64,000 bases of DNA from Acidimicrobiia bacterium (lineage in GTDB: Bacteria > Actinomycetota > Acidimicrobiia > Spongiisociales > ZC4RG35): assembly GCA_965203555.1 (NCBI GenBank), contig CBDBCY010000004.1, positions 832,001 through 896,000 on the forward strand. The letters run 5' to 3'. Shown one piece after another: positions 4,144 through 51,100 of this stretch. Numbering within the stretch: position 1 is the stretch's first letter; every line of letters starts with the position of its first letter. A program made the translations under genes and the position numbers. The notes under the pieces are model-generated. The model made no database searches. It worked only from the letters and a program-made list of their open reading frames with translations, and was not told where the DNA came from.

Positions 4144-5277
4144 ATGTTCAGGGAAAAGATCACGGAGCATGGACGGCGGGTTGAGACATTGCTCAAGGAC
4201 TTTCCGGAAATCAAAAAACTCGAGGCCGCCACCAAAAACAGTCTGATCGAACCTCTTCTCCGGTGTCTTGGCTATGACACCGGCCATCCTCAACAGGTTG
4301 CACTGGAGGCGCTCACGGAACTTGGCGAAAGAATCGATTATGTGCTGACCGGAGAGGCAAACGTCAAGATTGCAGTCGAAGCGAAGAAAGCCGGAAATCC
4401 GCTGTCCGTAAAGGAGACAAACCAACTGCGGTCTTACTTCACCTTCTCTGAAGCAGTGGCAGGCGTTCTGACCAACGGCATCGACGTCTGGCTCTTCACT
4501 GATCTGGACAAGGCCAACGTGATGGACGCCGAGCCCTATCTAATGGTGGACACCCGCAATGTCACTGATAACGACACATTCCATCTGGAAACGCTGACAA
4601 GAAGCCAAGTGAGCCAAACTGCTATTCACGAACAGGCTCAGAGGGAGCGGTACAGAATACTGATCAACAAGATTGTGACCCAAGAGTTGGGCACCCCTTC
4701 CCAAGAATTTCTCAGGATGGTCGGCAAGAAGGCCGAGATAAAGCCACTTACCAAAGCCACCCTTGAGTCTATAAAACCTCTGGTAGCCGAAGCTATCGAC
4801 CAAAGCCGGGGAGTCACCATCCCTTCCAACACAAAACCATCGCCGCCTGCAGGGCTAGATCCCAAACCTCCATCCCCCACTCCGCCAGCCTCCCCTCCTG
4901 CTAAGGACCCTCCCGAACTCGGACCTGGGAAAAGCCTACTTAACACTGTCCAGATTCAAAGAGCGACGCTGTTCGGGGAGGTTCTTCCTGCGAAGAGCTA
5001 CAGACAGATGCTGCTAGCCGTGGTTGCCGAACTCCAGGCACGGCATCCAAACGAATTCCCGGACCGAGTCCGCAATAAGGACTTCAAGGGAAGACAATGG
5101 TGGTTCATTAGTAGGGATCAGAGCGACCTTAGCCCAAAACTCTCGAAAGCCAAGGTGGGTGAGTATTACGTTAATACAAATTTCAGCAGACTAGGATCGA
5201 TTAAGCAGGCCCACCGATTCCTGATCGCCTTTGGCTACGGTGTCAAAGCGTTAGAAATCCGGACATCTGACGACTGA
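4144..5277 (+). CDS. HsdR_N-type PD-(D/E)xK nuclease, Pro-rich linker, SeqA-like C-terminal domain
   Basis: EAATKNSLIEPLLRCLGYD, IDYVL, AVEAKK, QLRSYF, GVLTNG; TACAAT 6 nt before the ATG. Confidence 0.78.
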   Translation: MFREKITEHGRRVETLLKDFPEIKKLEAATKNSLIEPLLRCLGYDTGHPQQVALEALTELGERIDYVLTGEANVKIAVEAKKAGNPLSVKETNQLRSYFTFSEAVAGVLTNGIDVWLFTDLDKANVMDAEPYLMVDTRNVTDNDTFHLETLTRSQVSQTAIHEQAQRERYRILINKIVTQELGTPSQEFLRMVGKKAEIKPLTKATLESIKPLVAEAIDQSRGVTIPSNTKPSPPAGLDPKPPSPTPPASPPAKDPPELGPGKSLLNTVQIQRATLFGEVLPAKSYRQMLLAVVAELQARHPNEFPDRVRNKDFKGRQWWFISRDQSDLSPKLSKAKVGEYYVNTNFSRLGSIKQAHRFLIAFGYGVKALEIRTSDD

Positions 5278-38301: not shown

Positions 38302-39153
38302 TCATCTCTCCACCCCGGCGGTCACGACCTCGGAGATGTTGCGCTGGAAGATGGCGGTGATGAGGATCACCGGCAGGGCGGTTATCACCGTGGCCGCCGC
38401 CAACTGCCCGATGGCGATGTCCGTCGTTGAGCGGAACAACCCCAGCGTCACGGTGAGAATGGAAAGGTCGCTGGTGAAGAGCAACGGGGTCAGGAACTCC
38501 ACCCAAGCAAGAATGAAGCCCAACAGCAACCCGGCGAAGATCCCGGGCCGGAGCAACGGGATGATGATACGAAACATCAGCTGGCGAAGCCCGGCGCCGT
38601 CGATCCGGGCCATCTCCTCCACTTCCACCGGTATCGCCCGGACGAACGATCCCATGATCCACACCATGAAGGGCAGGGTAAAGGCCACGTAGGGAAGCAC
38701 CAACCCTATGTAGGTGTCGTAGAGGCCCAATTGCACCACCGCGATGAACAGGGGAAGAACGAACAACAGGGTGGGAAGAATGTAGATGGCGGCGAACCCG
38801 CCCAGAATGATCCTCCTCCCCGGGACCGTCATCCGGTGCAGGGCGTAGGCGGCGGGCACCGCGATCGCCACGGTCAGAAAGGCCGTGGCCAGCGCCACCA
38901 CCAGACTGTTCACCATCGATTCCGCCACCGGGATGCCCGAGGCCTCCTCAAAGATCCTCTGATAATGCTCGGTCTCGATGTAGGTGGGGACGAACGCCAC
39001 GTCCCGGGAGCGAATGTCGGGTTCGGTCTGGATGCTGGTCAGGATGATCCCGTAGAGGGGAAAGGCCGTCACGACCAGGACCAGCACTGCGGCGCCGTAT
39101 ATCATCGCCCGTTTGAGCCGGCGTCCCGCGGACATGCGGTTCGAGGCCACCAT
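38302..39153 (-). CDS. Carbohydrate ABC transporter permease
   Basis: NSLVVA, EEMARIDGA, WVEFL. Confidence 0.92.
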   Translation of the reverse strand: MVASNRMSAGRRLKRAMIYGAAVLVLVVTAFPLYGIILTSIQTEPDIRSRDVAFVPTYIETEHYQRIFEEASGIPVAESMVNSLVVALATAFLTVAIAVPAAYALHRMTVPGRRIILGGFAAIYILPTLLFVLPLFIAVVQLGLYDTYIGLVLPYVAFTLPFMVWIMGSFVRAIPVEVEEMARIDGAGLRQLMFRIIIPLLRPGIFAGLLLGFILAWVEFLTPLLFTSDLSILTVTLGLFRSTTDIAIGQLAAATVITALPVILITAIFQRNISEVVTAGVER

Positions 39154-39155
39154 CG

Positions 39156-40085
39156 CTACATCCCCGCCAGTCGCCGGGATCGGGCCAGCATCCACCCCAA
39201 ACCGGCAATTGCCAGCACCGTCAGGGCAGATAGAAGGTATGCGGTAGCCGCCGCGTTGCCGAAATCGAACTGCTCGAATCCCTGGCGATAGGTCAGGAAA
39301 TTGAGGGTGGTAGTGCCCCGGATGGGTCCCCCTCGGGTCAGAACGAAGATGGTGTCGAACACCTTCATTGCCCACACGAACAGAAAGATCACCACCGGGA
39401 CCACCACCGGCAGCATCAGCGGGAGGGTCACATGGCGGAAACCCCGCCACGGACCGGCGCCGTCGATGGCGGCCGCCTCCCGGACGGACCTGGGCACGAT
39501 CTGCAGGCCGGCCAGGATGAACAGGGTGGCGAAAGGAATCCATCTCCAAACCTCGGTGATCAGCACCGAGTGAAGGGCGATGGTCGAACCGCCCAACCAG
39601 ATTATTCCCCCTTCTCCGCCGAATGCCCTGATCAGTCCGTTGAGAAATCCGAATTCGGCATGGAACATCTGCACCCACAGCACCCCGGAGGCGACGGGCG
39701 GCACCGCCCAGGGGAGCAGGACGGTCACCCTGAGCAGACCCCGGCCGAAGAAGGTCCTGTTCAGGAGGAGGGCTATCAAAAAGGACAGCACCACCGTCAG
39801 CACACAGAGCATCAACCCGAAGTAGACGGTTATCCGGGTCGCCTGCCAGAAGTGGGGATCGGTCAACTGGTTGATGAAGTTCTTGAACCAGACGAAACCC
39901 TCGATCCGGAATCGGGGAGACAGGTCTATCTTGGAGAAGCTGTAGGCCAGGGTCGAGAGAGCCGGATAGGCGTACACGCCGCACACCACCAGCACCGCCG
40001 GGGCCACCATCGCCGCCGCGACCAAACGACCGCGGCGGCGAGTCCGGCCGGCCCGAGCCTCGACCGCCTGCTCCTGGGAAGTCAT
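39156..40085 (-). CDS. Carbohydrate ABC transporter permease
   Basis: LLPWAVP, WRWIPF, EAAAIDGA, LTRGGP. Confidence 0.93.
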   Translation of the reverse strand: MTSQEQAVEARAGRTRRRGRLVAAAMVAPAVLVVCGVYAYPALSTLAYSFSKIDLSPRFRIEGFVWFKNFINQLTDPHFWQATRITVYFGLMLCVLTVVLSFLIALLLNRTFFGRGLLRVTVLLPWAVPPVASGVLWVQMFHAEFGFLNGLIRAFGGEGGIIWLGGSTIALHSVLITEVWRWIPFATLFILAGLQIVPRSVREAAAIDGAGPWRGFRHVTLPLMLPVVVPVVIFLFVWAMKVFDTIFVLTRGGPIRGTTTLNFLTYRQGFEQFDFGNAAATAYLLSALTVLAIAGLGWMLARSRRLAGM

Positions 40086-40101
40086 GGAGTCGGGCGCGGT
40101 T

Positions 40102-41472
40102 TTACGCTTCGTCCTGCCTGCGAGCTTCCAGGGTGGCTGCTGCTGCGTCGTCCAGGGCCTGCTGCGGAGTCTTCCGTTGCGCCAGAACCTCGTGGATCTC
40201 GTCGGAGAGGAACTGCGTCCAGCGAGGACGGTCCTCGGACCACCCTCCTTCCACGGGATACTCGTACGCCTTGGCCAGGGCCGGATAGAACGGGAAGGCT
40301 TCCACGATGTCGGGCTCGTTCAGGACCCCGCTGTAGATGGATCCCCATCCGCCCAGCGCCACCACTCTCTGGCCCTCGCGGGAAGAGATCAGATCCAGCA
40401 GGCGCCAGGCCTCGTCCTTGTTCTCGGCATAGACCGGGACTCCGAAGAACTCCGACCCGTCCACCGATCCGCTGGTCACCACGGCCGGGTTGGGAGCGAA
40501 GGCGCTGTGACCGGCGATTCCGGGCGCCGCGTCGGGAAGGGCCGCCACTCCCGCCACGAACGGCCAGGAGATGAACATGCCTCTCGTTCCGTCGAAGAAG
40601 CCGGGGGTGGCGTCGAACACCCAGGTGTAGGTGGGGACGGCGGGATCTATGCACTTGTGAACGTGAAGCAGGTCATGCAGCTTCTGCAGCGCTTCTACCC
40701 CTGCCTCGCTGTTGAAGGCAGGCTGCTGCTCCTCGTCGAGGAAAGTCCCGCCGTGCATGTGAAGCATGCCGCCCCAGGTGAACAGAACGTGCTGGTCGGC
40801 CCAGGCGTCGGTGAGTCCGTAGTACTGGACACCGTCCCGCTCTCCCGTCATCGCTATGGCGTATTCAACAAAGGTGTCATAGGAGTTGGGAGTGGAATGC
40901 CAGTCGAGCGGAAGGTCGGGATCGAGCCCCGCCTGTTCCATGAGCTTCTTGTTCCAGTGCAACAACTGACTGCCCATGGTCCACGGCACGGCCCAGGTTT
41001 CCCCGCCAAACTCCACTGCGCCCATGCCCCGGGTCAATAGGTCGGGTTCACTGCGAACCCGCTCGTCCATGAAGGGACCGGCGTTGGTGAGCCATTCGCC
41101 GTTGGTGAGCTCGGCCCCCAACGTGGCGGTGACGAACACCGCGTCCCAAGGCGAACTCTGCGCCAGGAAGGAAGTGGTCAGCTTGGTGCGCAGGTCGGGA
41201 CTGGTGACCTCTTCGACATTGGGAGCGAACCCCACGTTGGCCTCGTGCTGTTCCAGGAGTTGCTTGATGGGATCCATGTGCGTCCCGATCAGCACCCCCA
41301 GTTCTCCGGTGAAGTCCTCACCCGGCTCCGCCCCCTCATCGGTGGGGTCCCCTCCGCCGCAGGACGCCAACAGGCTTGAAAATCCTCCCATGGCGGCAAA
41401 GGCCAGCAGCGCGGAACTTCCTCCCAGGAATTGGCGACGGGTAATTCCAGAATCAAATCGTTTGGGGGTCAA
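40102..41472 (-). CDS. Sugar-type ABC substrate-binding lipoprotein with Tat signal
   Basis: TRRQFL, LLASC, WNKKLMEQAGL, FNSEAGVEAL, TPQQALD; gaggagg RBS. Confidence 0.9.
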   Translation of the reverse strand: MTPKRFDSGITRRQFLGGSSALLAFAAMGGFSSLLASCGGGDPTDEGAEPGEDFTGELGVLIGTHMDPIKQLLEQHEANVGFAPNVEEVTSPDLRTKLTTSFLAQSSPWDAVFVTATLGAELTNGEWLTNAGPFMDERVRSEPDLLTRGMGAVEFGGETWAVPWTMGSQLLHWNKKLMEQAGLDPDLPLDWHSTPNSYDTFVEYAIAMTGERDGVQYYGLTDAWADQHVLFTWGGMLHMHGGTFLDEEQQPAFNSEAGVEALQKLHDLLHVHKCIDPAVPTYTWVFDATPGFFDGTRGMFISWPFVAGVAALPDAAPGIAGHSAFAPNPAVVTSGSVDGSEFFGVPVYAENKDEAWRLLDLISSREGQRVVALGGWGSIYSGVLNEPDIVEAFPFYPALAKAYEYPVEGGWSEDRPRWTQFLSDEIHEVLAQRKTPQQALDDAAAATLEARRQDEA

Positions 41473-41805: not shown

Positions 41806-43329
41806 ATGGCCCGAACGACCTACCCCCCCTGGCCCACCGAGATGCGGTCCGTTTTCTTCGACAACGAAGACATAGCTTCGACCGCCACCCTGAGAAGGGC
41901 CGTGGCCGAGGAACGGATACGCCGCTTGGCGCCTCGACTCTATACGGCGGATCTGAAAAGTGATGCTGCTGAAATAGTGGTGGAGAACCGCTGGTTCATC
42001 CTGGGCCGCCTGCTGCCGGGTGCGCTCATAGTGGACCGTTCGGCGGCCGAAGGGGGTCGAGTGGTGAACGGCTTTCTGTTCGTAGCCTCTGAGGAAAGGC
42101 GTACGCCTATCCGGTTACCCGGTCTGGTCGTACACGTTCGTAACGGGAGACCGGTCGATGAACCGACAGAAGACCCGATGTGGGCAGAGGGTCTGAGGAT
42201 GTCCAGTCCGGCTCGAACTCTGGTGGACAACATGGCAGTGTCACGTCGTCGGGGAAAGCGACCTGCTCGAACCTTGTCGCCGAGCGAACTGGAAGATTGG
42301 CTGGCTCGGAAAGCCCTGGTCTGGGGACCGAAGCGTATATCGCGCCTTCGCGGCAACGCAGTGGCGATGGCTGAAGTTCTGGATGCACCGGATCGCGTTG
42401 AGAACATCAAACGCATCTTCGAGCAATTGGCTGGTCAGAGACCACCCAGCCCTGCCGCCGGTAGGTATTTCAGAGCGGTAGTCAAAGGTCGAGCCTGGGA
42501 CGAGCGGCGGATGGGGATGTTTCAACGATTAGTAGAAGGGCTCAATAAATACGACGATCCCGACCTGCCGGATTGGTTGCCTGCGGAGCCCTCTCCCGGG
42601 GAATTGCCTTTCTTCGAAAGCTACTTCTCGAACTACATCGAAGGAACAATCTTCACAGTGAACGAGGCCCGGCATATCGTGGAGAGCCAAGAGCCTCCAG
42701 CAACCCGCGCCGCCGATGGACACGACATACTGGGGACCCATCGCTGTGTCGTAGATCCTGTTGGCCGCAAGGCCGTCTCCGAAAAACCAGAGGAGATCGT
42801 CAGCCACCTCTGCAAACGTCACGAAACGATCATGGCCGTCGGACGACCGGAGTTGCTGCCCGGTCTATGGAAACACGAAAACAACCAGGCGGGAGGGTAT
42901 GTGTTCGTGGCTCCCAACCTGGTGGAGGGTACTCTCATGAAGGGTCTTGAACTCGTCTCCTCGGTTCCCGCCGGATTCCGGCGAGCCCTGTACGTGATGA
43001 TGGTGACCCTTGAAGTTCATCCCTTCATCGACGGAAACGGGCGGGTGGCCCGCGTGATGATGAACGCCGAACTTTCGGCAGCCAACCTGGCGCGGATCGT
43101 CATACCCAGCGTTTATCGCCGCGAATACCTCGGTGGGATACGGAGAGCCTCACTGTCGGACGGAGAGCACATCGGCAGCCTGGTCAAGGTAATGAGCTTT
43201 GCCTGGCGGTGGACCGCTGCCATGCCCTGGGAGGATCGGGCGGCTACCGAAGGGCAGTTGAAGGCCACCAACGCATTGCTGGACCCGGATGAAACCCCGA
43301 TGGGTGGCATCCGCTTGGAATTGCCCTGA
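41806..43329 (+). CDS. Fic family protein with extended N-terminal domain
   Basis: FFESYFSNYIEGT, HPFIDGNGRVAR. Confidence 0.92.
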   Translation: MARTTYPPWPTEMRSVFFDNEDIASTATLRRAVAEERIRRLAPRLYTADLKSDAAEIVVENRWFILGRLLPGALIVDRSAAEGGRVVNGFLFVASEERRTPIRLPGLVVHVRNGRPVDEPTEDPMWAEGLRMSSPARTLVDNMAVSRRRGKRPARTLSPSELEDWLARKALVWGPKRISRLRGNAVAMAEVLDAPDRVENIKRIFEQLAGQRPPSPAAGRYFRAVVKGRAWDERRMGMFQRLVEGLNKYDDPDLPDWLPAEPSPGELPFFESYFSNYIEGTIFTVNEARHIVESQEPPATRAADGHDILGTHRCVVDPVGRKAVSEKPEEIVSHLCKRHETIMAVGRPELLPGLWKHENNQAGGYVFVAPNLVEGTLMKGLELVSSVPAGFRRALYVMMVTLEVHPFIDGNGRVARVMMNAELSAANLARIVIPSVYRREYLGGIRRASLSDGEHIGSLVKVMSFAWRWTAAMPWEDRAATEGQLKATNALLDPDETPMGGIRLELP

Positions 43330-43527: not shown

Positions 43528-44904
43528 TCAACCGGCGGGCAGGATCCATGCGGATGGCGCCAGGTTGCGAGGTTGGGACAGGAGGTCCACTGAGGGGTCG
43601 ACAATCCGTCGAGCGGGGCGTCCGTTCATCGACACCCAGGCATCGGCTCGCACCTCGAGATCTTCAAACCCCTGTCGTTGATAGTGATCGGCTATGAGAC
43701 GAGCCGTGGCGTGGATCAGATCAGGCCGCACGTTGGCCTGCCCGGTCTGCCAATCGGTCAAGACAAGCTCGGGTCCGGTCAGCCAGGTATGTCCTCCGGA
43801 AGTATCGGTAACTCGATACTCGACGTACCCCGTCTTCTCGGTGAGCATGACCCGCCATGACCAGTAGTAACCCTCCTCGGTCCATCTCACGTTCCCGGTG
43901 TAGGCGTAGTGTCGCAGCGGCAGCAGCACCTGGAACAAAGCCAAGGCGACCAAAAGCACCACAGCCGGTCGGGTGATCCTTGCCGTTGCACCAGGCGCCG
44001 CTGCTCTCGCCTTGGACCCTGGTCGGATTGCTCGCCACGCCTTTACGGGCCAGTCGGGGCCGAAAAACACCAGACCACTCACGATCATCACCCACGGAAA
44101 CACCCCTATCCGGAACATCACTCCGGTGGCTAGATGAAACCCGACCAGCGCCATGTACGCCCACGGACGGCTGCGACGCCACAGCAGCCAGGCCACGATG
44201 GTGCAGTCGAAAAAGGCGCCCCCCCAACTGGCCAGGTAGGCGACCACCGGCTCATCGAGAAGGGGCCCGATGATCGGAAGATGGGTGCGGTCGGCCAGCC
44301 ACAGCCGCAGCGGTTGGGCTCTCAGCAGCCAATCTCCGTTGAGTTTGGCCAACCCGGCGAAGGCATAGAGCAGACCCAACTGCCCCCGGAGCACCCAGAC
44401 CACCGCCGCCGACACGGTCGCTCTCGCCTCCACCCGACCTGCCCGGGCGTCGAGCGACCAGCGATGGTGCACGGGGAGGAGCACCAACAGCACTGCGGCC
44501 AGCGTGACGAACCAGTAGTGGTTCAGATACAGGACCGCGTCGATCAATTCCGTGTAGGTGAATCCCACCGCATACAACGCCGCGGCCAGCCGATGCCGGT
44601 ACCCCAAGGCCACACAGATCCCCAGAAGAGCCAGCACCACCATGAGAAGGTGCATCCACGGAGCGGGAAGCGGGTGAACCCAGTCGAAGCCCGGATAACT
44701 CAGATGATTGGTAGGCGCGAGATAGAGGCTGTCCACCCAGCCGCGGGCCAGAAAACGGACTGAACCGAAGGTCGCCACCACCCCGAAGCCGATACGAAAG
44801 ACTGCCACCGAGTCGGCAGCCACCGGCCGCCGGGCCGCAGCGCCGAGTCGCGCCAGAAAATCCGACAGGGGTCGGGCTTCAACCGGAACTGTCGCCGTCG
44901 GCAT
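43528..44904 (-). CDS. HTTM / vitamin K-dependent gamma-carboxylase-like protein
   Basis: FRIGFG, YLNHYW, AGLAKLNGDWL, IGVFPW, WTEEGYYWSWRVML, SMNGRP...IVDP. Confidence 0.9.
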   Translation of the reverse strand: MPTATVPVEARPLSDFLARLGAAARRPVAADSVAVFRIGFGVVATFGSVRFLARGWVDSLYLAPTNHLSYPGFDWVHPLPAPWMHLLMVVLALLGICVALGYRHRLAAALYAVGFTYTELIDAVLYLNHYWFVTLAAVLLVLLPVHHRWSLDARAGRVEARATVSAAVVWVLRGQLGLLYAFAGLAKLNGDWLLRAQPLRLWLADRTHLPIIGPLLDEPVVAYLASWGGAFFDCTIVAWLLWRRSRPWAYMALVGFHLATGVMFRIGVFPWVMIVSGLVFFGPDWPVKAWRAIRPGSKARAAAPGATARITRPAVVLLVALALFQVLLPLRHYAYTGNVRWTEEGYYWSWRVMLTEKTGYVEYRVTDTSGGHTWLTGPELVLTDWQTGQANVRPDLIHATARLIADHYQRQGFEDLEVRADAWVSMNGRPARRIVDPSVDLLSQPRNLAPSAWILPAG

Positions 44905-45928
44905 CGCTGAACCCGAGGGCCACTCCCAATTGGGCGATCACCTCGGTGGCCACGCTGATCTGCACGGCTTTCACGGCATCCCGGGCGGCTGCGACCACGG
45001 CGGGAGTGTCGACCACGGCCTGCCGCAGGGGTGGTCGGATAGCCTCCACGGCGTCAAGGGCGGCAATCATCTGCGTTGAGAGCCGTTCCGCCAGGTCTTC
45101 GGTCAACAGGGCGTCCAGCCCGGAATCGAGGTCCTGCCCGATCAATACCGATTGCAAGCCGAGCAAACGTTCCAGAAGGTCAGTCACCCCACCGCCCGCC
45201 TCACCTTCCTGGATGGCTTCCAGTTTGGGTGAACGGCCCATCACTCCCAGGGCAGAACCCAATTCCAGGTCGGTGACGGATTCGAGAAGGAAGAAGGCGT
45301 CGTTTACCAACGAGTCCAACCCGTCGCCGTCGGCAACGCTGAACGTTTCCCGGTAGGGAGCGCCTCCCTCCCGGCCGGTGGTCCAGTCGGAGAGAAGCAG
45401 GTCGGCCTGGTCGGCAATGATCTCCGAGACGGTTTGCAGGTATTCGCACCTGCGGGGATCCTGCAGCGCAGCCAGTGGGTCGTCTCCGGCGTGGAGAACG
45501 TACTCCAACCCATCCAGGCCCCGCTGATCGGATCCGATGCGGGTGGCCAGGCGCTCGAAGTCCAACCCGACAGAAGTGTCGGAAATCATATCCTCGATCT
45601 GGTCGGGGTCCACCGGCCACCGGACCACCGACCAGGACCGCCGTTCCATCACCGGACCCACCCACATCGCCTGGGCGCCCACCCAAGCCTGGCGTGCGGA
45701 ATCCACCGCGGTCCGCGAAGCGGCCAGCCCCGCACTGTCCGGGGCTTCACAGAATCCACCGATGGTGGAGTACATGTGGGAAGCAGCGGCTTGGAACCGC
45801 TCGTAAGCGGGGATGATCGCCTCGCCAGCCAAATCGTCCAGGATCTCCGGACGGCTCGGGGCTCCCGCGCAGGAAGCCGCCAAAACCGCGAACGCAACCA
45901 GTGTCCCGACCGGGCGTCGGAGGTTCAC
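44879..45928 (-). CDS. Imelysin-like (M75) lipoprotein lacking the motif His
   Basis: Lipobox LAASC, IIPAY, ARQAW, VGP, RGLDGLEYVL, C-terminal GFSDADGD. Confidence 0.85.
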   Translation of the reverse strand: MNLRRPVGTLVAFAVLAASCAGAPSRPEILDDLAGEAIIPAYERFQAAASHMYSTIGGFCEAPDSAGLAASRTAVDSARQAWVGAQAMWVGPVMERRSWSVVRWPVDPDQIEDMISDTSVGLDFERLATRIGSDQRGLDGLEYVLHAGDDPLAALQDPRRCEYLQTVSEIIADQADLLLSDWTTGREGGAPYRETFSVADGDGLDSLVNDAFFLLESVTDLELGSALGVMGRSPKLEAIQEGEAGGGVTDLLERLLGLQSVLIGQDLDSGLDALLTEDLAERLSTQMIAALDAVEAIRPPLRQAVVDTPAVVAAARDAVKAVQISVATEVIAQLGVALGFSDADGDSSG

Positions 45929-47310
45929 AATGCCTCCAAAAAAGCCACCAAATCAGCCCGGTCCTCGGCATCGGCCATCCTGAACGCCTCGCGGGAAGCT
46001 TCAGCCTCTCCGCCGTGCCACAGTATGGCTTCCTCCAAGGTCCTGGCCCGGCCGTCATGCAGAAGGAACCGATACCCCTGGACATCGTCAACAAGTCCGA
46101 GACCCCACAGCGGCGGGGTGCGCCACTCGCTACCGCTGGCCGCGAAATCTTCCCTGTTATCAGCCAGACCCGGTCCCATGTCGTGCAGCAACAGATCAGT
46201 GTAGGGATGAATGGTCTGGTTGGAGAGGGTCAAAAGGTCCACTGTTCCGGTCTGGTGGGTGGGAGTGTGACAGGCCGCACACCCAAAGTCCGCAAACAAC
46301 TGCGCGCCGGCCCGCACCGGGGCAGTCTCATGTCCCCGCATGGCGGGAACCGCCAGGGTGCGGATGTACAGGACCACAAACGCCAGGCGGGAGTCGGTTA
46401 TCTCAGGCGTGCCTCCGTGAGGAGCGGCGGAGCAATCTCGTTGGACGGGCCTGCAGTTCTCTTCGGGGTGCAGAACCGAAGTTATCCCGATGTCGCCGTG
46501 AAACGCTCCGGCGGCCTGCTGCTCGGCGGTGGCGACATTGGCCTTCCATCCAAACCGGCCCAGGGTATGGGTTCCCGCCCTGGCATCCCAAACCACATTG
46601 GCCCGGCCGGAGATGCCGTCGCCGTCGGCGTCATCGGGGTCGGCGGCGGCCAATATCGATTCGGCGGGAATAGCTTCCAGCAACCCTATTCCCACCACCT
46701 GCTGTGCCAAACGGGAACTGGTACGCACATTTTCCGCCAGGGGACCGAAGGCGAGATCGACGATCTCGTATGTCGGCGCCCGCAGCTCGAATTCGCTGCC
46801 GTCGCCGTAGGCGCCGACGATGTACTCGTAGGTCACGTTCAATGTCCCTTCGGCAGGCACCCCCAGAACGGACCGATCCTGCAACTGGCCACCGTACACC
46901 GGATCCGGCAGCGGCGCACCGGTGACGGGGTCTGCACCGGGAACCGAGAGCCTGACGAGCAGACCCAGACGCGTCTGCGCTCCGGTGGGATCGGGAGGAA
47001 GTCCTCGTCCGTCCAGCAGGTGACAGGACGCACAAGCTTGAGCATTGAAGACTGGACCCAGCCCGTCCCTGGCCTCGGTGGAAGCCGGAGCGGAAACCCA
47101 GTTCTGGGTAAAGAAACTGTCCCCTACCTCGAACAGCCGGCGTTCTTCGTTGGACAGTTGGGGCGCCGGCAGGCTAAACGAGTTCCTGGAGACATCGCTG
47201 CGCGTGGTATCACCGCCCAGTTTGGGGTCCAGAACCAAATCATCGGCGCTGCAGGCACCGGCCAGCAGGACAAAGCCCACCACGATCAACGGAGTAACCC
47301 GATGGGCCAC
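45925..47310 (-). CDS. Di-heme oxidoreductase (DHOR) lipoprotein
   Basis: GLGPVFN, CASCH, GRFGWKA, CAACH, YTDLLLHDMG, EWRTPPLWG, LHDGRA. Confidence 0.93.
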   Translation of the reverse strand: MAHRVTPLIVVGFVLLAGACSADDLVLDPKLGGDTTRSDVSRNSFSLPAPQLSNEERRLFEVGDSFFTQNWVSAPASTEARDGLGPVFNAQACASCHLLDGRGLPPDPTGAQTRLGLLVRLSVPGADPVTGAPLPDPVYGGQLQDRSVLGVPAEGTLNVTYEYIVGAYGDGSEFELRAPTYEIVDLAFGPLAENVRTSSRLAQQVVGIGLLEAIPAESILAAADPDDADGDGISGRANVVWDARAGTHTLGRFGWKANVATAEQQAAGAFHGDIGITSVLHPEENCRPVQRDCSAAPHGGTPEITDSRLAFVVLYIRTLAVPAMRGHETAPVRAGAQLFADFGCAACHTPTHQTGTVDLLTLSNQTIHPYTDLLLHDMGPGLADNREDFAASGSEWRTPPLWGLGLVDDVQGYRFLLHDGRARTLEEAILWHGGEAEASREAFRMADAEDRADLVAFLEAL

Positions 47311-47373
47311 CTCTAGCCGATCCGGCCGATACCTGGCAACTCCTTCACCTTTTCGAAAAAGCCAAGTCTCGTA

Positions 47374-48555
47374 TCAGCTGACCTCTATGGCAATGCCGAG
47401 GGCATCCGCGGCAGCCACGATGGTGTCGGTCTGGGTTTCCAGGGCCTCGATGGTAGAGAGCACCTGCTGGCGACCGGGATCGTTGTCCGACACCCCGTCC
47501 CGGAGGTGCTGATCAAACGGCGCCGGAATGGCCCGGGCGGCATTGATGCTGACCGCTACCTCTCCTCTGAGCTGCTGGGCCAGTTCACTGTCGGCCGCAG
47601 CAATGACATCGAGCAGGCCGGTGCCGGAGACACCGCCCGGGTAGCTGCCCAGCAGCACCATCTCCACGCCACGGGCGTTGCCAATAATGTCAACCGTGGT
47701 GTTGTCCGAGAAGCAGGAATGTTCATCCTCCTGGGAACGCTCCAGATACGCAACGCTCATACGCTCGCCGGCCAATTCGCCACGAGACATCTCGCCGATA
47801 CCGGTGAAGGCCAGCCTGAGTGCGTCGGAGGAGTCCATTGCCTCGAAACCGGCCCGGTAGTTGTTCTGCCCCGGCGCCCAGGCAACCACCAGTTCTTCGA
47901 GATGGGCCACCAATTGATCTGTCACCGCAGCCAGATAGGCTGCTCGGCGATCAGCGTTGGCGGCGGTGGTGTAGTCCTCCACCGGACGATCGCCGGGACC
48001 GTTCTCATTCATGTCCTGACCCCATAGCAGGAATTCGATGGCATGCCAGCCCGTCGACACGTTGGCCTCGCCACCCTGCTCGTTCAACTCCACCAGGAGG
48101 TCGGCGGTGATTTCCGGATAGGCGCCCGGATCGTTGATGATCCCGGTTCCCGAGTCTCCTTCGACATAGTCGATGTAACCCTCGTCCAAGGGCCAGGCGT
48201 TTATGAGACCTTCGGTACCGGTCTCCTCGTTGTCGATGGGACCCCCATAGAAACGGAACACTTCTGTTGGACCGTAGTCCACCCTGGCCACCAACCAGGC
48301 CTGGCGCGCTGCGTCCAGGGTGGCCTGGGAGGGGGAGTCCAGGAAGGCGTCGATAGCTGAGTCCATGGCCCTCGCCGAGAAGAGACTGGCCTGATAAGCC
48401 GAGTGCACGCCGGCGGCATAGGTTGCCGCGGCGTCATCAAGCACAGCCTCGTCGACCGACGAATCATCGGCGCAGGCGGACAGCGTCAGGGCAATGGCTG
48501 CAACCAGGGACAAGAGGCGGACAAGACTTAGCGAGTTTGTGTTAGTACGTAGCAT
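47374..48555 (-). CDS. Imelysin/IrpA-like iron-regulated lipoprotein (start uncertain)
   Basis: Lipobox LSAC, TEVFRFYGGPID, INAWPLDEGYID, TGWHAIEFLLWGQD (GxHxxE), EDEHSCFSDNT. Confidence 0.92.
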   Translation of the reverse strand: MLRTNTNSLSLVRLLSLVAAIALTLSACADDSSVDEAVLDDAAATYAAGVHSAYQASLFSARAMDSAIDAFLDSPSQATLDAARQAWLVARVDYGPTEVFRFYGGPIDNEETGTEGLINAWPLDEGYIDYVEGDSGTGIINDPGAYPEITADLLVELNEQGGEANVSTGWHAIEFLLWGQDMNENGPGDRPVEDYTTAANADRRAAYLAAVTDQLVAHLEELVVAWAPGQNNYRAGFEAMDSSDALRLAFTGIGEMSRGELAGERMSVAYLERSQEDEHSCFSDNTTVDIIGNARGVEMVLLGSYPGGVSGTGLLDVIAAADSELAQQLRGEVAVSINAARAIPAPFDQHLRDGVSDNDPGRQQVLSTIEALETQTDTIVAAADALGIAIEVS

Positions 48556-48875
48556 ATTTTGCATAATAAACATTTTATAAAACATTTGCCAAATACCAAT
48601 AGTGTCAAACCGCGACCCCATGAGGCAGGCTGGACTACAAACCCGGCCAGGAGCCTTTACGCCCGGTATTTCTGCCGGGAACAACGAAGAGCACTGACGT
48701 CAACTGTCTCTTCATTTTGGCCGAGAAGTTCTCGACACCAGGTTCGCGGTTCTCCGGGAAGGCCTGAGAAAGGCAAGAACTCTTCGATGAGTCCGGACCC
48801 CGCTGCCGTCGGGCGGCGCCGGAGGTCCCGTTCGCGCAGAACCCGGAGCCAGGACGGGGCGAACTCCGCCGGACG

Positions 48876-50291
48876 TCAGTCGCGGAGCCCGGGCAGGTCG
48901 GGGCCGAAACCCTGGCGGAAGTCGAACTCCTCAGTCTCCACCGTGGCGGCCCCCAGTTGCCGGCTGGCTTTCTCGGCGGCGATGATCATGCTCTTGGGGC
49001 CGCACAGCGCGACATGGCCGCCCCTGAGGCCGTCGGGTCCGAAGTGCTCAGCCAGAGTCGACTTCCCGAATCGTCGCCCCTCCGCGGAGGCGATGACCTG
49101 CAGACTGATTCTGCCCTCGGCGTGGGCCTTGCCGAGCAGGTCCATCCCCATCGCGTCAGCCCGGTTTCGCACGCAATAGAACAGCACGGGAGGATTGTCG
49201 GAGTCGGCAGGCATCATCGTCGAGTTGGACAAAAACGGTGTGATGCCCACGCCGCCGGCCACCCAGACGGTCGGGGCGTCGTTTTTGGATGTCTCGAACG
49301 TTCCGTACGGTCCTTCCACCAACACCTCGAGTCCGACCAGATCGGTGTCGTGGAGCTTCGCCGTCCAGTCGCCCAGCCGACGGATGAAAAAGCGCAGATG
49401 GCCCGAGCCGGGCGGCGCGGCGACAGTGAACACATGCGGCTCGGACAGTCCCCGCTTCTGGAACTTCAGGACTGCGAACTGCCCTGCGTGGTAGTCGAGA
49501 TGCCTGCCCACCGGCTCGAGGACGATATCCAGGGCCGTCCCCACCTTCGCCGCGGACACGACCCGGTATCGCAGGCCCCGAAAGATCATGTCGCGCACGA
49601 TCAGACGGTGGAGGCACGCGGCCATCCCGACGGCCATGATGGCGTTCAGGAGTATTCCCGCCCCCGACCAATTCTGAAAGGGCTTCTCGGCGGTGTACAC
49701 GTGCCACACGGCGAACGCGTACGGTACGCCGAACAACTTGTGGGTGAGGCGCCACCATCGGTACGGCATCCATCTGAGAATGCTGAACACGAACAGGACG
49801 AGGCTGATGATGACTGCCGCCGACGCCAACCCGAGCGCGGTGTCGGCAGTCGATTGAGCGACCTCCAGATAGCCGCCGCGGATGCCGGCCGAGCCAGCGT
49901 GGAACAGCATCGTGGGAATAGCCAGCGCGCCGGTCCAGCGATGCACCCGGTAAGCGCGGTCGAGACCGCCGAAAACAGGCTCCAACCACGGGATGCGAAC
50001 GGCCAACACGAAGCTCCAGGACATGAGCACCAGCGACATCGCGCCGATGGTCAGTCCCGACGCGCGGGCGTTGCCGCCGGGTCCCGAACCGCTCGACACC
50101 GCGATCGCCGACGCGAAGACCGACACCACCACGATCGACGGGCCCACCCACCCCAGATGCGGCCGCAGGATGCGGATGCTGGGAGCCTTCAGGCGCCAGT
50201 CCTGGCGACGCCCGAACAACCGCCGCAGTGGCGAGGGCCGCGAGCGGGCACGCGGCAGGGAGCGGGGATACCGGGCGGCATCGGCGACCAT
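48876..50291 (-). CDS. Ferric reductase-like TM domain plus FAD/NAD-binding oxidoreductase (start uncertain)
   Basis: FGGLDRAYRVHRW, WRLTHK, HAGQF, EPHVFT, GDWT, EGPYG, AGGVGITPF, CGP, EEFDFR. Confidence 0.9.
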   Translation of the reverse strand: MVADAARYPRSLPRARSRPSPLRRLFGRRQDWRLKAPSIRILRPHLGWVGPSIVVVSVFASAIAVSSGSGPGGNARASGLTIGAMSLVLMSWSFVLAVRIPWLEPVFGGLDRAYRVHRWTGALAIPTMLFHAGSAGIRGGYLEVAQSTADTALGLASAAVIISLVLFVFSILRWMPYRWWRLTHKLFGVPYAFAVWHVYTAEKPFQNWSGAGILLNAIMAVGMAACLHRLIVRDMIFRGLRYRVVSAAKVGTALDIVLEPVGRHLDYHAGQFAVLKFQKRGLSEPHVFTVAAPPGSGHLRFFIRRLGDWTAKLHDTDLVGLEVLVEGPYGTFETSKNDAPTVWVAGGVGITPFLSNSTMMPADSDNPPVLFYCVRNRADAMGMDLLGKAHAEGRISLQVIASAEGRRFGKSTLAEHFGPDGLRGGHVALCGPKSMIIAAEKASRQLGAATVETEEFDFRQGFGPDLPGLRD

Positions 50292-50302
50292 CCGACGTCG
50301 TT

Positions 50303-51100
50303 CTACTCTCGGCGAATGGTCCTGCGCCACGGGGACCAGCGGGTAGCAGCATAGGCCATGGCCTCGTCGGTGAGCAGCAACCGCGTCGAATTGCCGATGC
50401 GCACGTAGAAATCGGCGGCGCGGCGCCCGCCCGGAGGGTTGGCGAACACGGCCCGAGGATGCGGGTCGACGTCGATGCGGACCACGTTGTGCAATCCGCA
50501 CGGCGGGAACGAGACCCTGATCGAGGCCATCGCGGCACTGCCCAATGTGGATTGGAGCATGTCGGCCAGCCAGAGATGGTAGCGATCGAAGTCGGGCTGC
50601 TTCATGTGCTGCAGGTCGTCGTCGAGTCCTACCGGATGGCCGGCGTCGTCGACCCCGACCAGCAGTGTTCCGCCGCGGCTGTTCAGGAAGCCGGCCACGG
50701 TCTTGGCCACCGCCATCTCGATCCGGGCGTCCCGCCGGCCGGTGCGGACGTTGTGTCGTGCGGTCTGCTTGAACTCGACTTCTTCCGATTCCCCGGCGCC
50801 CAGGATCTCGCTTACGGACTTCGCCGAGCGCTTGGCAACCGCCGACGCCACCGCGGCGTAGACAGCGAGCACACCGACGGACCCGGCGACCGCCGACGCC
50901 ACCGACAGCACCGTCGGCTCGAATGCCGCGCTGCCGCTGAAAAGCGACAACAAGGTCGTTCCGACGCCTGCGCCGACCATGCCCACCAGGATGGTCTCGG
51001 CCCACGACAGCGACACCCGTCGCCTCAGCATCAGGCGAGCGACAGTGCCCAGCACCAGTCCGGCGAGAAGGAACCCGATCCAGGAGAACCCGCTCAGCAC
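50303..51100 (-). CDS. GlsB/YeaQ/YmgE-like TM domain fused to a Schlafen AlbA_2 domain
   Basis: GLVLGTVARLML...TILVGMVGAGVG; GESEEVEFKQT, KTVAGFLNSRGGTLLVGVDD, FYVRIGNST. Confidence 0.88.
   Translation of the reverse strand: MLSGFSWIGFLLAGLVLGTVARLMLRRRVSLSWAETILVGMVGAGVGTTLLSLFSGSAAFEPTVLSVASAVAGSVGVLAVYAAVASAVAKRSAKSVSEILGAGESEEVEFKQTARHNVRTGRRDARIEMAVAKTVAGFLNSRGGTLLVGVDDAGHPVGLDDDLQHMKQPDFDRYHLWLADMLQSTLGSAAMASIRVSFPPCGLHNVVRIDVDPHPRAVFANPPGGRRAADFYVRIGNSTRLLLTDEAMAYAATRWSPWRRTIRRE

Follow-up and report, generated by a model that had tools for sequence, protein, structure and literature searches.

Among bacterial homologues of the human vitamin K-dependent carboxylase GGCX, the available sections of the literature found name a single characterised case, MloH. 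[quoted passage not shown] Published iron induction of relatives of the cassette described here is confined to Leptospira and Riemerella. The present locus, found in the window (the whole stretch of 64,000 nucleotides analysed), joins two questions through a linkage that spans several phyla, namely what the bacterial GGCX homologues do and how the imelysin cassettes, widespread and regulated by iron, work.

Gene layout and products of the cassette

Four minus-strand genes at 43528-48555 encode, in order, an ICMP-type imelysin (imelysin A), a di-haem DHOR protein, an IPPA-type imelysin (imelysin B) and an HTTM/vitamin-K-carboxylase homologue:

48563..48592, minus strand: promoter-like site, TTGGCA, 18 nt, TATTAT (consensus scan, 10/12 positions)
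47374-48684, minus strand: imelysin A open reading frame, long form (ORF call)
47374..48555, minus strand: imelysin A, ICMP/PA4370-type lipoprotein (Pfam PF09375, E 1.9e-75)
45925..47310, minus strand: DHOR di-haem protein, predicted lipoprotein (Pfam PF06537, E 8e-99, positions 7-499 of 499)
44879..45928, minus strand: imelysin B, IPPA/PA4372-type lipoprotein (Pfam PF09375, E 2.4e-27)
43528..44904, minus strand: HTTM/vitamin K-dependent carboxylase homologue, 458 aa, integral membrane plus lumenal-type domain (PF05090, PF22777)

The preliminary description had seen four co-oriented genes, the last three overlapping, three of them for acidic lipoproteins, and the minus-strand reading frames agree with it: gene 2 overlaps gene 3 by 4 nt and gene 3 overlaps gene 4 by 26 nt, with a gap of 63 nt between genes 1 and 2. 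The mature products of genes 1-3 have pI values of 4.05, 4.6 and 4.1 (9.87 for the HTTM protein), and each carries a Cys behind a hydrophobic N-terminal segment, so that all three are predicted to be lipidated. The start of imelysin A is likely the ATG at 48555, inside the longer reading frame. The promoter-like site ends 7 nt ahead of this ATG, within an AT-rich island; in the 3.4-Mb genome 23 stretches of 40 nt contain 9 G+C or fewer, this island among them. The site, a candidate promoter, suggests a separate, possibly leaderless transcript. All four genes are matched by contigs (146-354 nt, 1-7 differences) of a single RNA library, which is not proof of transcription. The neighbours of the cassette in the window are a NOX-like reductase, a Fic protein, an ABC sugar-type transporter and redox enzymes.

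Imelysin A, whose signal peptide ends in LTLSAC, matches the Pseudomonas aeruginosa IcmP structure 7xrx (phmmer, E 6.6e-70) and carries the motif GWHAIE (GxHxxE) at residue 212 of the long reading frame. The DHOR protein has two CxxCH haem c motifs, CASCH at 93 and CAACH at 344, and a sequence search for a relative of solved structure found none. In imelysin B, a scan for GxHxxE or HxxE found neither, the motif His being missing. A profile of 36 relatives of imelysin B matches IPPA (3pf0, E 2.2e-36) end to end, including the C-terminal DGD, and the Cys behind its N-terminal segment is invariant in all 36. The protein ends in an acidic tail, GFSDADGDSSG, that is conserved among the aligned relatives and predicted to be flexible, the AlphaFold2 model having a pLDDT of 92.6 overall and of 46 over the last 10 residues; the available part of the crystallographic account of IPPA describes the C-terminal tail as disordered (PMC3143127). 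The tail is not specific to HTTM contexts, as it also occurs in a Psychrobacter IPPA, in an imelysin-DHOR-imelysin operon lacking HTTM, and in two hydroxylase-linked cassettes.

Linkage with imelysins and with iron

Of 76 informative related loci from about nine phyla, 60 have an imelysin gene adjoining HTTM, and in 11 of those 60 it is the sole cassette partner of HTTM. In a sample of 201 Bacteroidota genomes, an imelysin lies within about 400 bp of HTTM in 38 of the 42 genomes that bear HTTM; in a same-class sample of 151 genomes, six have an HTTM of more than 200 bits, and in five of these DHOR is less than 3 kb away, the sixth HTTM being at a contig end. The window genome has 43528..44904 as its sole HTTM gene. 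The constant partner is the IPPA-type imelysin alone, rather than the whole imelysin-DHOR-imelysin trio, and the link is therefore not monoderm-specific. The linkage between HTTM and imelysin is strongly conserved across these surveys and is no monoderm trait, the arrangement being common in Bacteroidota and Myxococcota, beside TonB-dependent receptors. A quick tree groups the 11 unlinked HTTMs, together with one locus whose context is unknown, in a single clade (support 98), and the context labels need 6 changes on the tree against a shuffled mean of 20.7. A search for HTTM-imelysin fusion proteins found none, which is weak evidence, and a discussion of the HTTM-imelysin link was not found in the open literature searched. 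HTTM is very probably a working part of the imelysin cassette. Cultured, non-pathogenic carriers among the related loci are Ilumatobacter nonamiensis (L017) and Pedobacter (L038, L053).

The proposed tie of such cassettes to iron holds, by the published data and by gene context in relatives. The order DUF4856-imelysin-HTTM-TonB receptor occurs in four loci (L029, L036, L038, L053), a TonB receptor flanks 8 of 11 imelysin-HTTM loci, and a ferritin, a FecCD protein or a siderophore-type binding protein flanks three actinobacterial loci. Ahead of the cassette, 25 of 60 relatives carry the operator TTAGG-N4-CCTAA, the chance expectation being 0.05 per 500 nt; the window genome contains 0 perfect copies, with none at the operon, and no Fur box was seen at the window cassette. 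The cassette probably serves iron uptake.

Possible reactions of the HTTM protein

The protein matches PF05090 (HTTM) over positions 2-259 of 259 (E 1.7e-74, 251.2 bits against a cut-off of 27.7) and PF22777 (VKGC_lumenal_dom) over positions 5-149 of 152 (E 2.4e-42, 144.9 bits). The motifs listed in the preliminary description are all present in its translation (YLNHY at 126-130, AGLAKLNGDW at 183-192, WxxxGYxWSWxxM as W341..GYYWSW..M353, and SMNGR at 425-429 followed by ..DP), and their suggested correspondence to the catalytic His/Lys region is borne out by alignment with human GGCX chains (phmmer, E 1.7e-34), which equates H129 with His160 and K187 with Lys218. In that alignment, human N159/H160/K218/D222/W223/D263/F299 correspond to N128/H129/K187/D191/W192/D233/F269, and none of these seven catalytic-site residues varies among the 64 HTTM relatives aligned. 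Following the roles given in the available part of PMC12647623, counterparts are present both of the catalytic base Lys218 and its supporting Trp223 and Asp263 (K187, W192, D233), by sequence alignment, and of the Glu/CO2-site residues Asn159, His160, Phe299 and Tyr395 (N128, H129, F269, Y346). The alignment stops at human residue 503, the human C-terminal domain (503-758) being absent, and the propeptide-clamp residues Y425, R436 and H440 are not kept, reading L, Q and R by alignment count. The AlphaFold2 model (pLDDT 95.7) matches only GGCX structures in Foldseek: all 16 matches at E<=1e-3 are GGCX, with TM 0.68-0.84. Sequence and model together support the view that HTTM is a full-length, catalytically intact-looking GGCX homologue.

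The protein might instead be non-catalytic, a membrane dock or a permease for iron freed by the lipoproteins. The cassette contains no recognisable permease, and FTR1/EfeU (PF03239) gave no match in the 95%-complete genome, with controls positive in four genomes. Complex prediction for HTTM with residues 21-349 of imelysin B gave a score of 0.50 (runs 0.50, 0.37 and 0.55) against 0.01 for the best of three controls; between runs, contacts agree to 69% or more, with a partner pLDDT of at least 86. Among 157 solved complexes 116 reach the pass mark, and among 215 mismatched pairs 2 do; the passing scores of 0.60 or less comprise 18 of the 157 solved complexes and both mismatches. These counts hold only roughly here, since alignments made for this analysis were used. 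This weakly supports a predicted contact between HTTM and imelysin B. Seven residues invariant across 64 proteins from many phyla would, however, be unexpected for a mere anchor, and the transporters closest to the model reach no better than E 0.3, at a TM below 0.2; a non-catalytic role is very improbable. HTTM more likely than not carries out catalysis that depends on a quinol and O2.

In the explanation that we prefer, the four genes would form one iron-acquisition cassette acting at the outer face of the cytoplasmic membrane, where the three acidic lipoproteins (ICMP-type imelysin, DHOR and IPPA-type imelysin) would handle the metal. HTTM, whose topology we infer from homology to GGCX, would draw menaquinol from the membrane and with O2 form a strong base, which would permit the addition of CO2 adjacent to a carboxylate. 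The partner specific to HTTM would be the IPPA-type imelysin, an acidic residue of which is the most likely substrate; the best candidate would be the conserved, flexible C-terminal D-x-D-G-D tail, which on carboxylation would become a malonate-like metal-chelating group. That menaquinol is used, that carboxylation takes place and which substrate receives it are what we infer here, and the explanation as a whole, to which the complex prediction with imelysin B also lends weak support, is offered tentatively, being rather doubtful. Against it stand the changed propeptide-clamp residues and absent C-terminal domain, the acidic tails outside HTTM contexts, the lack of the relatives' operator at the window promoter and, weakly, that of any fusion protein. 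That the reaction is carboxylation of an imelysin protein is plausible but, taken by itself, unlikely. As for the quinone, MenA of menaquinone synthesis is encoded in the genome (213 bits). The interpretation of menaquinone-dependent carboxylation linked to metal uptake in a monoderm thus retains the intact-looking GGCX homologue, the conserved linkage, the tie to iron and the presence of MenA, and loses the monoderm peculiarity.

A Leptospira HTTM homologue reportedly epoxidises vitamin K, carboxylation being undetected. HTTM could be an oxygenase only, performing 'epoxidase' chemistry with menaquinol and O2 and carboxylating no protein, in which case it would provide the same oxygen-dependent membrane step as the di-iron hydroxylase of sister cassettes; such a step could oxidise or modify a lipid-soluble molecule, an imported iron ligand or imelysin-held iron. 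In both of two gammaproteobacterial DUF4856/imelysin/TonB-receptor cassettes, an FA_hydroxylase (PF04116, 86 and 78.7 bits) occupies the position of HTTM; this makes a more general membrane step that needs oxygen a serious competitor of carboxylation, and the shared role of this position, as the substitution suggests, need not be carboxylation. The substitution is, however, observed in two loci only. In favour of the oxygenase, giant viruses have a gamma-carboxylase-like epoxidase that is either fused to a His-box desaturase or paired with one, according to the available sections of PMC13486548, which also describe region 374-418 as required for carboxylation and absent from viral epoxidase-only forms; this region is retained in the window HTTM, which speaks against the oxygenase, as does the invariance of the substrate-carboxylate/CO2 residues N159, H160 and F299 in all 64 relatives. 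Also against it, the counterpart of Y395, the residue that binds substrate Glu, is Tyr mainly within the imelysin-linked clade (39 of 51 linked HTTMs, with His in 8 of 11 unlinked ones). At the position of M401, all 51 linked proteins have Val and all 11 unlinked ones Met. On the side of the oxygenase, the analysis identified neither a carboxylated residue nor a substrate motif or propeptide-like element, and VKOR does not co-occur with HTTM: it was found in 4 of the 42 Bacteroidota genomes that bear HTTM and in 30 of the 159 that do not, and was not found in the 95%-complete window genome. Bacterial VKORs are in any case mostly without epoxide reductase activity, as far as the accessible text of PMC4555120 states. 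An oxygenase-only HTTM is judged somewhat unlikely.

HTTM might also carboxylate a small molecule, a carboxylate-bearing ligand such as an iron chelator or an organic acid, which imelysin B would hold or deliver while itself unmodified. MloH offers a precedent with its non-protein aspartyl intermediate, in the parts available of two sources (bioRxiv 10.64898/2026.08.19.745780; PMC12647623), the catalytic residues of HTTM are intact, and the diderm cassettes, with their TonB-dependent receptors, imply that a ligand is imported. Scans of 14 neighbouring window ORFs and of 135 out of 190 flanking ORFs in relatives found, however, no biosynthetic genes (PKS, NRPS or similar), and monoderm cassettes lack a receptor or dedicated importer; the small-molecule target is improbable. 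A still more speculative and quite improbable variant of protein modification would have interchangeable enzymes turn the IPPA-type D-x-D-G-D tail into a strong Fe(III) chelator, HTTM by beta-carboxylating Asp (with menaquinol, O2 and CO2) and the sister di-iron hydroxylase by beta-hydroxylation.

A GGCX homologue that recurs across many bacterial groups as a constant part of an iron-scavenging gene set is a concrete, testable clue to the function of the bacterial family, and the locus supplies a named partner (the IPPA-type imelysin) and a candidate target (the acidic C-terminal tail). Were carboxylation to prove true, vitamin K-dependent protein modification would be placed in bacteria and tied to metal acquisition, whereas the oxygenase would mean a new oxygen-dependent step in iron uptake. 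The tail as a chelator would represent the first vitamin K-dependent protein carboxylation in bacteria, and would explain both the purpose of the bacterial GGCX homologues and iron capture by imelysin systems that have no permease.

Comparison with known systems

Human GGCX (PDB 9l21, 9bvk) resembles the window HTTM in its membrane fold and lumenal domain (TM 0.80-0.84 normalised to the query) and in the kept counterparts of N159, H160, K218, W223, D263, F299 and Y395. It differs in length (758 aa against 458 aa), the window protein lacking the C-terminal domain 503-758 and the clamp residues; moreover, no Gla-domain substrate is known for the window HTTM, its quinone would be menaquinone, and no VKOR was found in the genome. 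In Pseudomonas, the fourth gene of the PA4370-4373-type cassette encodes a DUF1513 protein, whereas the fourth gene here encodes HTTM; a search of the genome with PF07433 (DUF1513) gave no match, the controls likewise giving none in any genome. The first three genes and their order are as here, an ICMP-type imelysin, a DHOR and an IPPA-type imelysin ending in DGD (PMC3143127). The window host differs in being an Acidimicrobiia-type actinobacterium, in which an outer membrane is therefore absent.

The Riemerella genes share the layout of TonB receptor, carboxylase homologue, imelysin and hypothetical protein with L029, L036, L038 and L053, and differ from the window in forming a two-lipoprotein cassette, without DHOR or an ICMP-type imelysin, in a diderm host. 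MloH (Streptomyces, malonomycin) is likewise a bacterial HTTM-family enzyme, with vitamin K-dependent carboxylation demonstrated according to the excerpts available; by description it is set apart, acting on a small-molecule intermediate in a PKS-NRPS cluster, whereas the window cassette lies outside any such cluster. EfeUOB/M combines an imelysin-domain protein with a haem peroxidase-type partner in envelope iron handling, as the available parts of PMC3143127 and PMC9174327 describe; no EfeU/FTR1 permease was found in the window cassette or genome, the haem protein is DHOR and not DyP, and EfeUOB has no HTTM. The DUF4856-imelysin-TonB receptor-FA_hydroxylase cassettes (L103, L104) share with HTTM cassettes the IPPA-like imelysin with a C-terminal GDGD, DUF4856 and the TonB receptor, and differ in their membrane enzyme, a His-box di-iron hydroxylase (PF04116) replacing HTTM. 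We rate the HTTM-bearing set as a variant of the known imelysin cassette.

The HTTM operon and its surroundings

ORF calls and Pfam searches place four genes on the minus strand, with overlaps of 4 nt between genes 2 and 3 and 26 nt between genes 3 and 4 and a 63-nt spacer between genes 1 and 2, which bears out the preliminary description of four co-oriented genes, the last three overlapping. The same description had called three of the products acidic lipoproteins, and indeed imelysin A, DHOR and imelysin B (genes 1 to 3) have pI values of 4.05-4.6 and each carries a Cys behind a hydrophobic leader, as predicted lipoproteins should; the pI of the HTTM protein is 9.87.

Features of the operon and its upstream neighbour
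48555 down to 43528, minus strand: four-ORF operon (ORF calls and Pfam)
Gene 1: imelysin (Pfam E 1.9e-75)
Gene 2: DHOR (Pfam E 8e-99)
Gene 3: second imelysin (Pfam E 2.4e-27)
Gene 4: HTTM (Pfam E 1.7e-74) with GGCX lumenal domain (Pfam E 2.4e-42)
3' end 7 nt ahead of ATG 48555, minus strand: promoter-like site TTGGCA-18-TATTAT (sequence)
48876-51005, minus strand, directly upstream of the cassette: NOX/FRE-like protein, 709 aa (Ferric_reduct, FAD_binding_8, NAD_binding_1)

Imelysin A contains GWHAIE and matches IcmP (7xrx) at E 6.6e-70, and is thus of the ICMP/PA4370 type, while imelysin B, in which the motif His is absent, is of the IPPA/PA4372 type. Strongly AT-rich 40-mers number only 23 genome-wide, and the promoter-like site sits within one of them; no further copy of this AT-rich element was found in the rest of the genome. 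Contigs of 146-354 nt from one metatranscriptome library, with 1-7 differences, fall on all four genes; they document presence only, rather than transcript ends or levels, and may include DNA carry-over.

The NOX-like ferric reductase was considered as a member of the cassette. Pfam matches nothing in its N-terminal 320 aa, phmmer returned 0 matches to it in the 79 related loci, and a terminator-like site together with the operon's own promoter separates it from the cassette; it is therefore treated as a mere neighbour. On the other side, a Fic-domain gene (41806-43329, plus strand) separates the cassette from an ABC sugar-type transporter (38302-41472), and in the closest relative among the loci fetched for comparison (L013) transporter genes come straight after the cassette.

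Kinship with GGCX and linkage to imelysin

The HTTM protein is genuinely related to GGCX, a carboxylase dependent on vitamin K; NCBIfam has no model naming it. Human GGCX is matched by phmmer at E 1.7e-34 over residues 19-455. The AF2 model, built on an alignment of 64 relatives, has a pLDDT of 95.7, and all 16 Foldseek matches at E<=1e-3 are GGCX chains (TM 0.68-0.84), the first match beyond this set having E 0.3, so that structure prediction agrees with the homology proposed earlier. Functional roles have been assigned to GGCX residues by cryo-EM, as described in PMC12647623, and their equivalents, counted along the HMMER alignment and thus from sequence rather than 3D superposition, are listed below.

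Equivalent residues in human GGCX and the window's HTTM protein
N159 / H160: N128 / H129
K218: K187
W223: W192
D263: D233
F299: F269
Y395: Y346

N128, H129, K187, W192, D233 and F269, as well as D191 (human D222), are identical in 64/64 aligned proteins; the proposed correspondence of the HTTM motifs to the catalytic His/Lys region of GGCX thus holds by alignment, with H129 corresponding to H160 and K187 to K218. The equivalent of human residues 374-418, a region described in PMC13486548 as required for carboxylation and absent from viral epoxidase-only forms, is retained as well. Unlike human GGCX, the window's protein lacks the C-terminal domain (503-758) and does not retain the propeptide-clamp residues.

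Conservation of the linkage between HTTM and imelysin, which had been put forward as a check, was surveyed in 79 loci with HTTM relatives, sorted by profile searches made from the window's own proteins; imelysin adjoins HTTM in 60 of the 76 informative loci. The labels of the relatives' loci are mostly Acidimicrobiia, many of them sponge-associated MAGs, the closest being 79% identical. By record title, the imelysin-linked loci belong to Actinomycetota, Chloroflexota, Acidobacteriota, Bacteroidota/Balneolota, Myxococcota, Bradymonadales, a Verrucomicrobiota-labelled MAG, Pseudomonadota and Sericytochromatia.

Gene arrangements in loci with HTTM relatives
Imelysin-DHOR-imelysin-HTTM, co-directional: 35 loci
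The same, partial or cut by contig end: 4 loci
Imelysin-DHOR-imelysin trio divergent from HTTM: 8 loci
The same trio convergent with HTTM: 1 locus
HTTM with imelysin fragment at contig edge: 1 locus
Imelysin-HTTM only: 11 loci
HTTM, no imelysin: 16 loci
Uninformative: 3 loci

HTTM matches above 200 bits occur in 6/151 genomes of the same class, lying <=3 kb from DHOR in five and at a contig end in the sixth. In a sample of 201 Bacteroidota genomes, HTTM gives a strong match in 42 and an imelysin is present in 46; by coordinate comparison, 38 have the two no more than ~400 bp apart. Eight Bacteroidota genomes with imelysin but no HTTM-imelysin pair carry different systems with a core of ICMP-type imelysin and DHOR (42/78 ORFs scanned), one of them having the trio without HTTM. 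From the arrangements in the loci and the genome samples it follows that the constant partner of HTTM is the IPPA-type imelysin. Where DHOR occurs without HTTM in the same class, a Pfam imelysin adjoins it in 1/8 loci fetched (49/78 ORFs scanned). No fusion of HTTM or imelysin B was found among the longer proteins searched, which is weak evidence.

The HTTM proteins without an imelysin stand apart. In a quick IQ-TREE phylogeny, 11 unlinked HTTMs and one of unknown context form a single clade (support 98), and the context labels require 6 changes, where shuffled labels average 20.7. At the position of human Y395, 8/11 unlinked proteins have His and 39/51 imelysin-linked ones Tyr; at that of M401, Met is found in 11/11 of the former and Val in 51/51 of the latter. 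The 16 loci show mixed neighbours and no common partner (54/82 ORFs scanned). A separate imelysin-less subfamily has DUF1559 pseudopilin-like proteins next to it, along with a small unknown ORF, in L049, L061 and L074 (two labelled Planctomycetaceae, one Alcaligenaceae); in L054 and L066 it adjoins a P-type ATPase as well as a DUF389 protein.

The set L020, L022, L039 and L026 includes near-identical HTTMs from MAGs labelled Acidobacteriota and Actinomycetota, and in the quick tree a Granulosicoccaceae (Pseudomonadota) HTTM is nested among actinobacterial copies. Such cross-phylum near-identity and nesting suggest that the cassette was transferred or that contigs were misbinned.

Imelysin B as a candidate substrate

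Homology to GGCX predicts that the HTTM protein has its active site facing outward, on the side of the lipoproteins. The invariance of the residues binding carboxylate and CO2 speaks for true carboxylation of a carboxylate-bearing substrate. The window's genome (95% complete) contains a MenA gene; VKOR, FTR1 and FA_hydroxylase genes were not found in it.

A possible target is the C-terminal tail of imelysin B, in which GFSDADGD(SSG) is conserved. The tail is predicted to be flexible (pLDDT 46 vs 92.6 overall), and the corresponding tail is disordered in the IPPA crystal as reported in PMC3143127. Complex prediction for HTTM and imelysin B gave a score of 0.50 (runs 0.50, 0.37 and 0.55), the best of three controls reaching 0.01, with at least 69% of contacts agreeing between runs and a partner pLDDT of at least 86. 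The pass mark of this procedure was met by 116/157 solved complexes and 2/215 mismatched pairs, passes at a score <=0.60 comprising only 18 of the 157 solved complexes plus both passing mismatches, and these calibration counts hold roughly, as custom alignments were used for the prediction. The models thus lend weak support to a contact between the two proteins.

The acidic tail is not specific to HTTM, which counts against a simple carboxylation reading: it also occurs in a Psychrobacter IPPA, in a trio without HTTM (L100) and in two cassettes whose membrane enzyme differs. In a same-family genome, an imelysin next to DHOR at a locus without HTTM (L091:3304-4509, minus strand) has LLDLTGSSRNTQ at its C-terminus and no DGD tail, a single case that may be decay.

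A strong rival is that HTTM acts as an oxygenase only and carboxylates no protein. Both DUF4856 cassettes found in 301 Gammaproteobacteria (2/2; 12/23 ORFs scanned) combine imelysin and a TonB receptor with FA_hydroxylase and have no HTTM; the HTTM position can therefore be taken by a His-box di-iron hydroxylase. In giant viruses, a truncated carboxylase-like epoxidase is fused to a His-box desaturase, according to PMC13486548. VKOR was rejected as a recycling partner: it was not found in the window's genome, and Bacteroidota genomes with HTTM do not have it more often than those without (4/42 HTTM-bearing vs 30/159 HTTM-less genomes); however, bacterial VKORs are described in PMC4555120 as mostly without epoxide reductase activity. 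Taken with the occurrence of the tail outside HTTM contexts, the hydroxylase swap, the viral fusion and the lack of VKOR enrichment keep the oxygenase-only role a strong rival to true carboxylation.

Iron context and relation to known systems

Imelysin-DHOR-imelysin operons belong to Fur regulons, as reported by Xu et al. 2011 (PMC3143127), and the operon of Leptospira is described in PMC13066512 as induced by iron limitation. Among the relatives' flanks (135/190 flanking ORFs covered), a TonB receptor adjoins 8/11 imelysin-HTTM loci, and three actinobacterial loci are flanked by ferritin, a FecCD protein or a Peripla_BP_2 protein.

The palindrome TTAGG-N4-CCTAA (<=2 mismatches) lies 5' of the cassette in 25/60 relatives' loci, with 0.05 expected per 500 nt. 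It precedes the first imelysin in L002-L028 (e.g. L002:4362-4394, L010:4286-4318), often in two copies 19 bp apart that overlap the promoter region. In the 4.1-Mb genome of one relative (G151), 2 of 3 perfect copies precede the operon, the third having an ABC-2 exporter on one side and a CoA-transferase on the other and being uninformative on iron. Compared with the 19-base actinobacterial iron box, at least 13/19 positions agree in 14/58 loci (0.028 expected per 500 nt), and the palindrome would appear to resemble that box in part only. The window's genome lacks the palindrome, and the window's best match to the iron box is 10/19.

In the Bacteroidota locus L095, a haem oxygenase gene (4429-5025, minus strand) stands between the ICMP-type imelysin and DHOR, and in L043 an HmuY-like gene follows HTTM. 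These two neighbours hint that haem may supply some of the iron for such cassettes. Bacteroidota also have a second imelysin system (L093, L098), in the order ~420-aa unknown protein, small Rieske protein (L093:6093-6533, L098:6027-6461), ICMP-type imelysin, DHOR.

No paper on HTTM together with imelysin was found in the open literature, subscription journals and supplements lying outside its reach. Carboxylase and imelysin do stand as neighbours in a table of the Riemerella study PMC5609570, beyond which the open literature yielded nothing on DUF4856 with a carboxylase. All genes of that set are up 2.1-3.1 under iron restriction, and its authors make no remark on the carboxylase-imelysin link. 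The Riemerella layout recurs as DUF4856-imelysin-HTTM-TonB receptor in L029, L036, L038 and L053. The imelysin cassette itself is already known and its HTTM-bearing form is rated new, providing a concrete way to test what bacterial GGCX homologues do.
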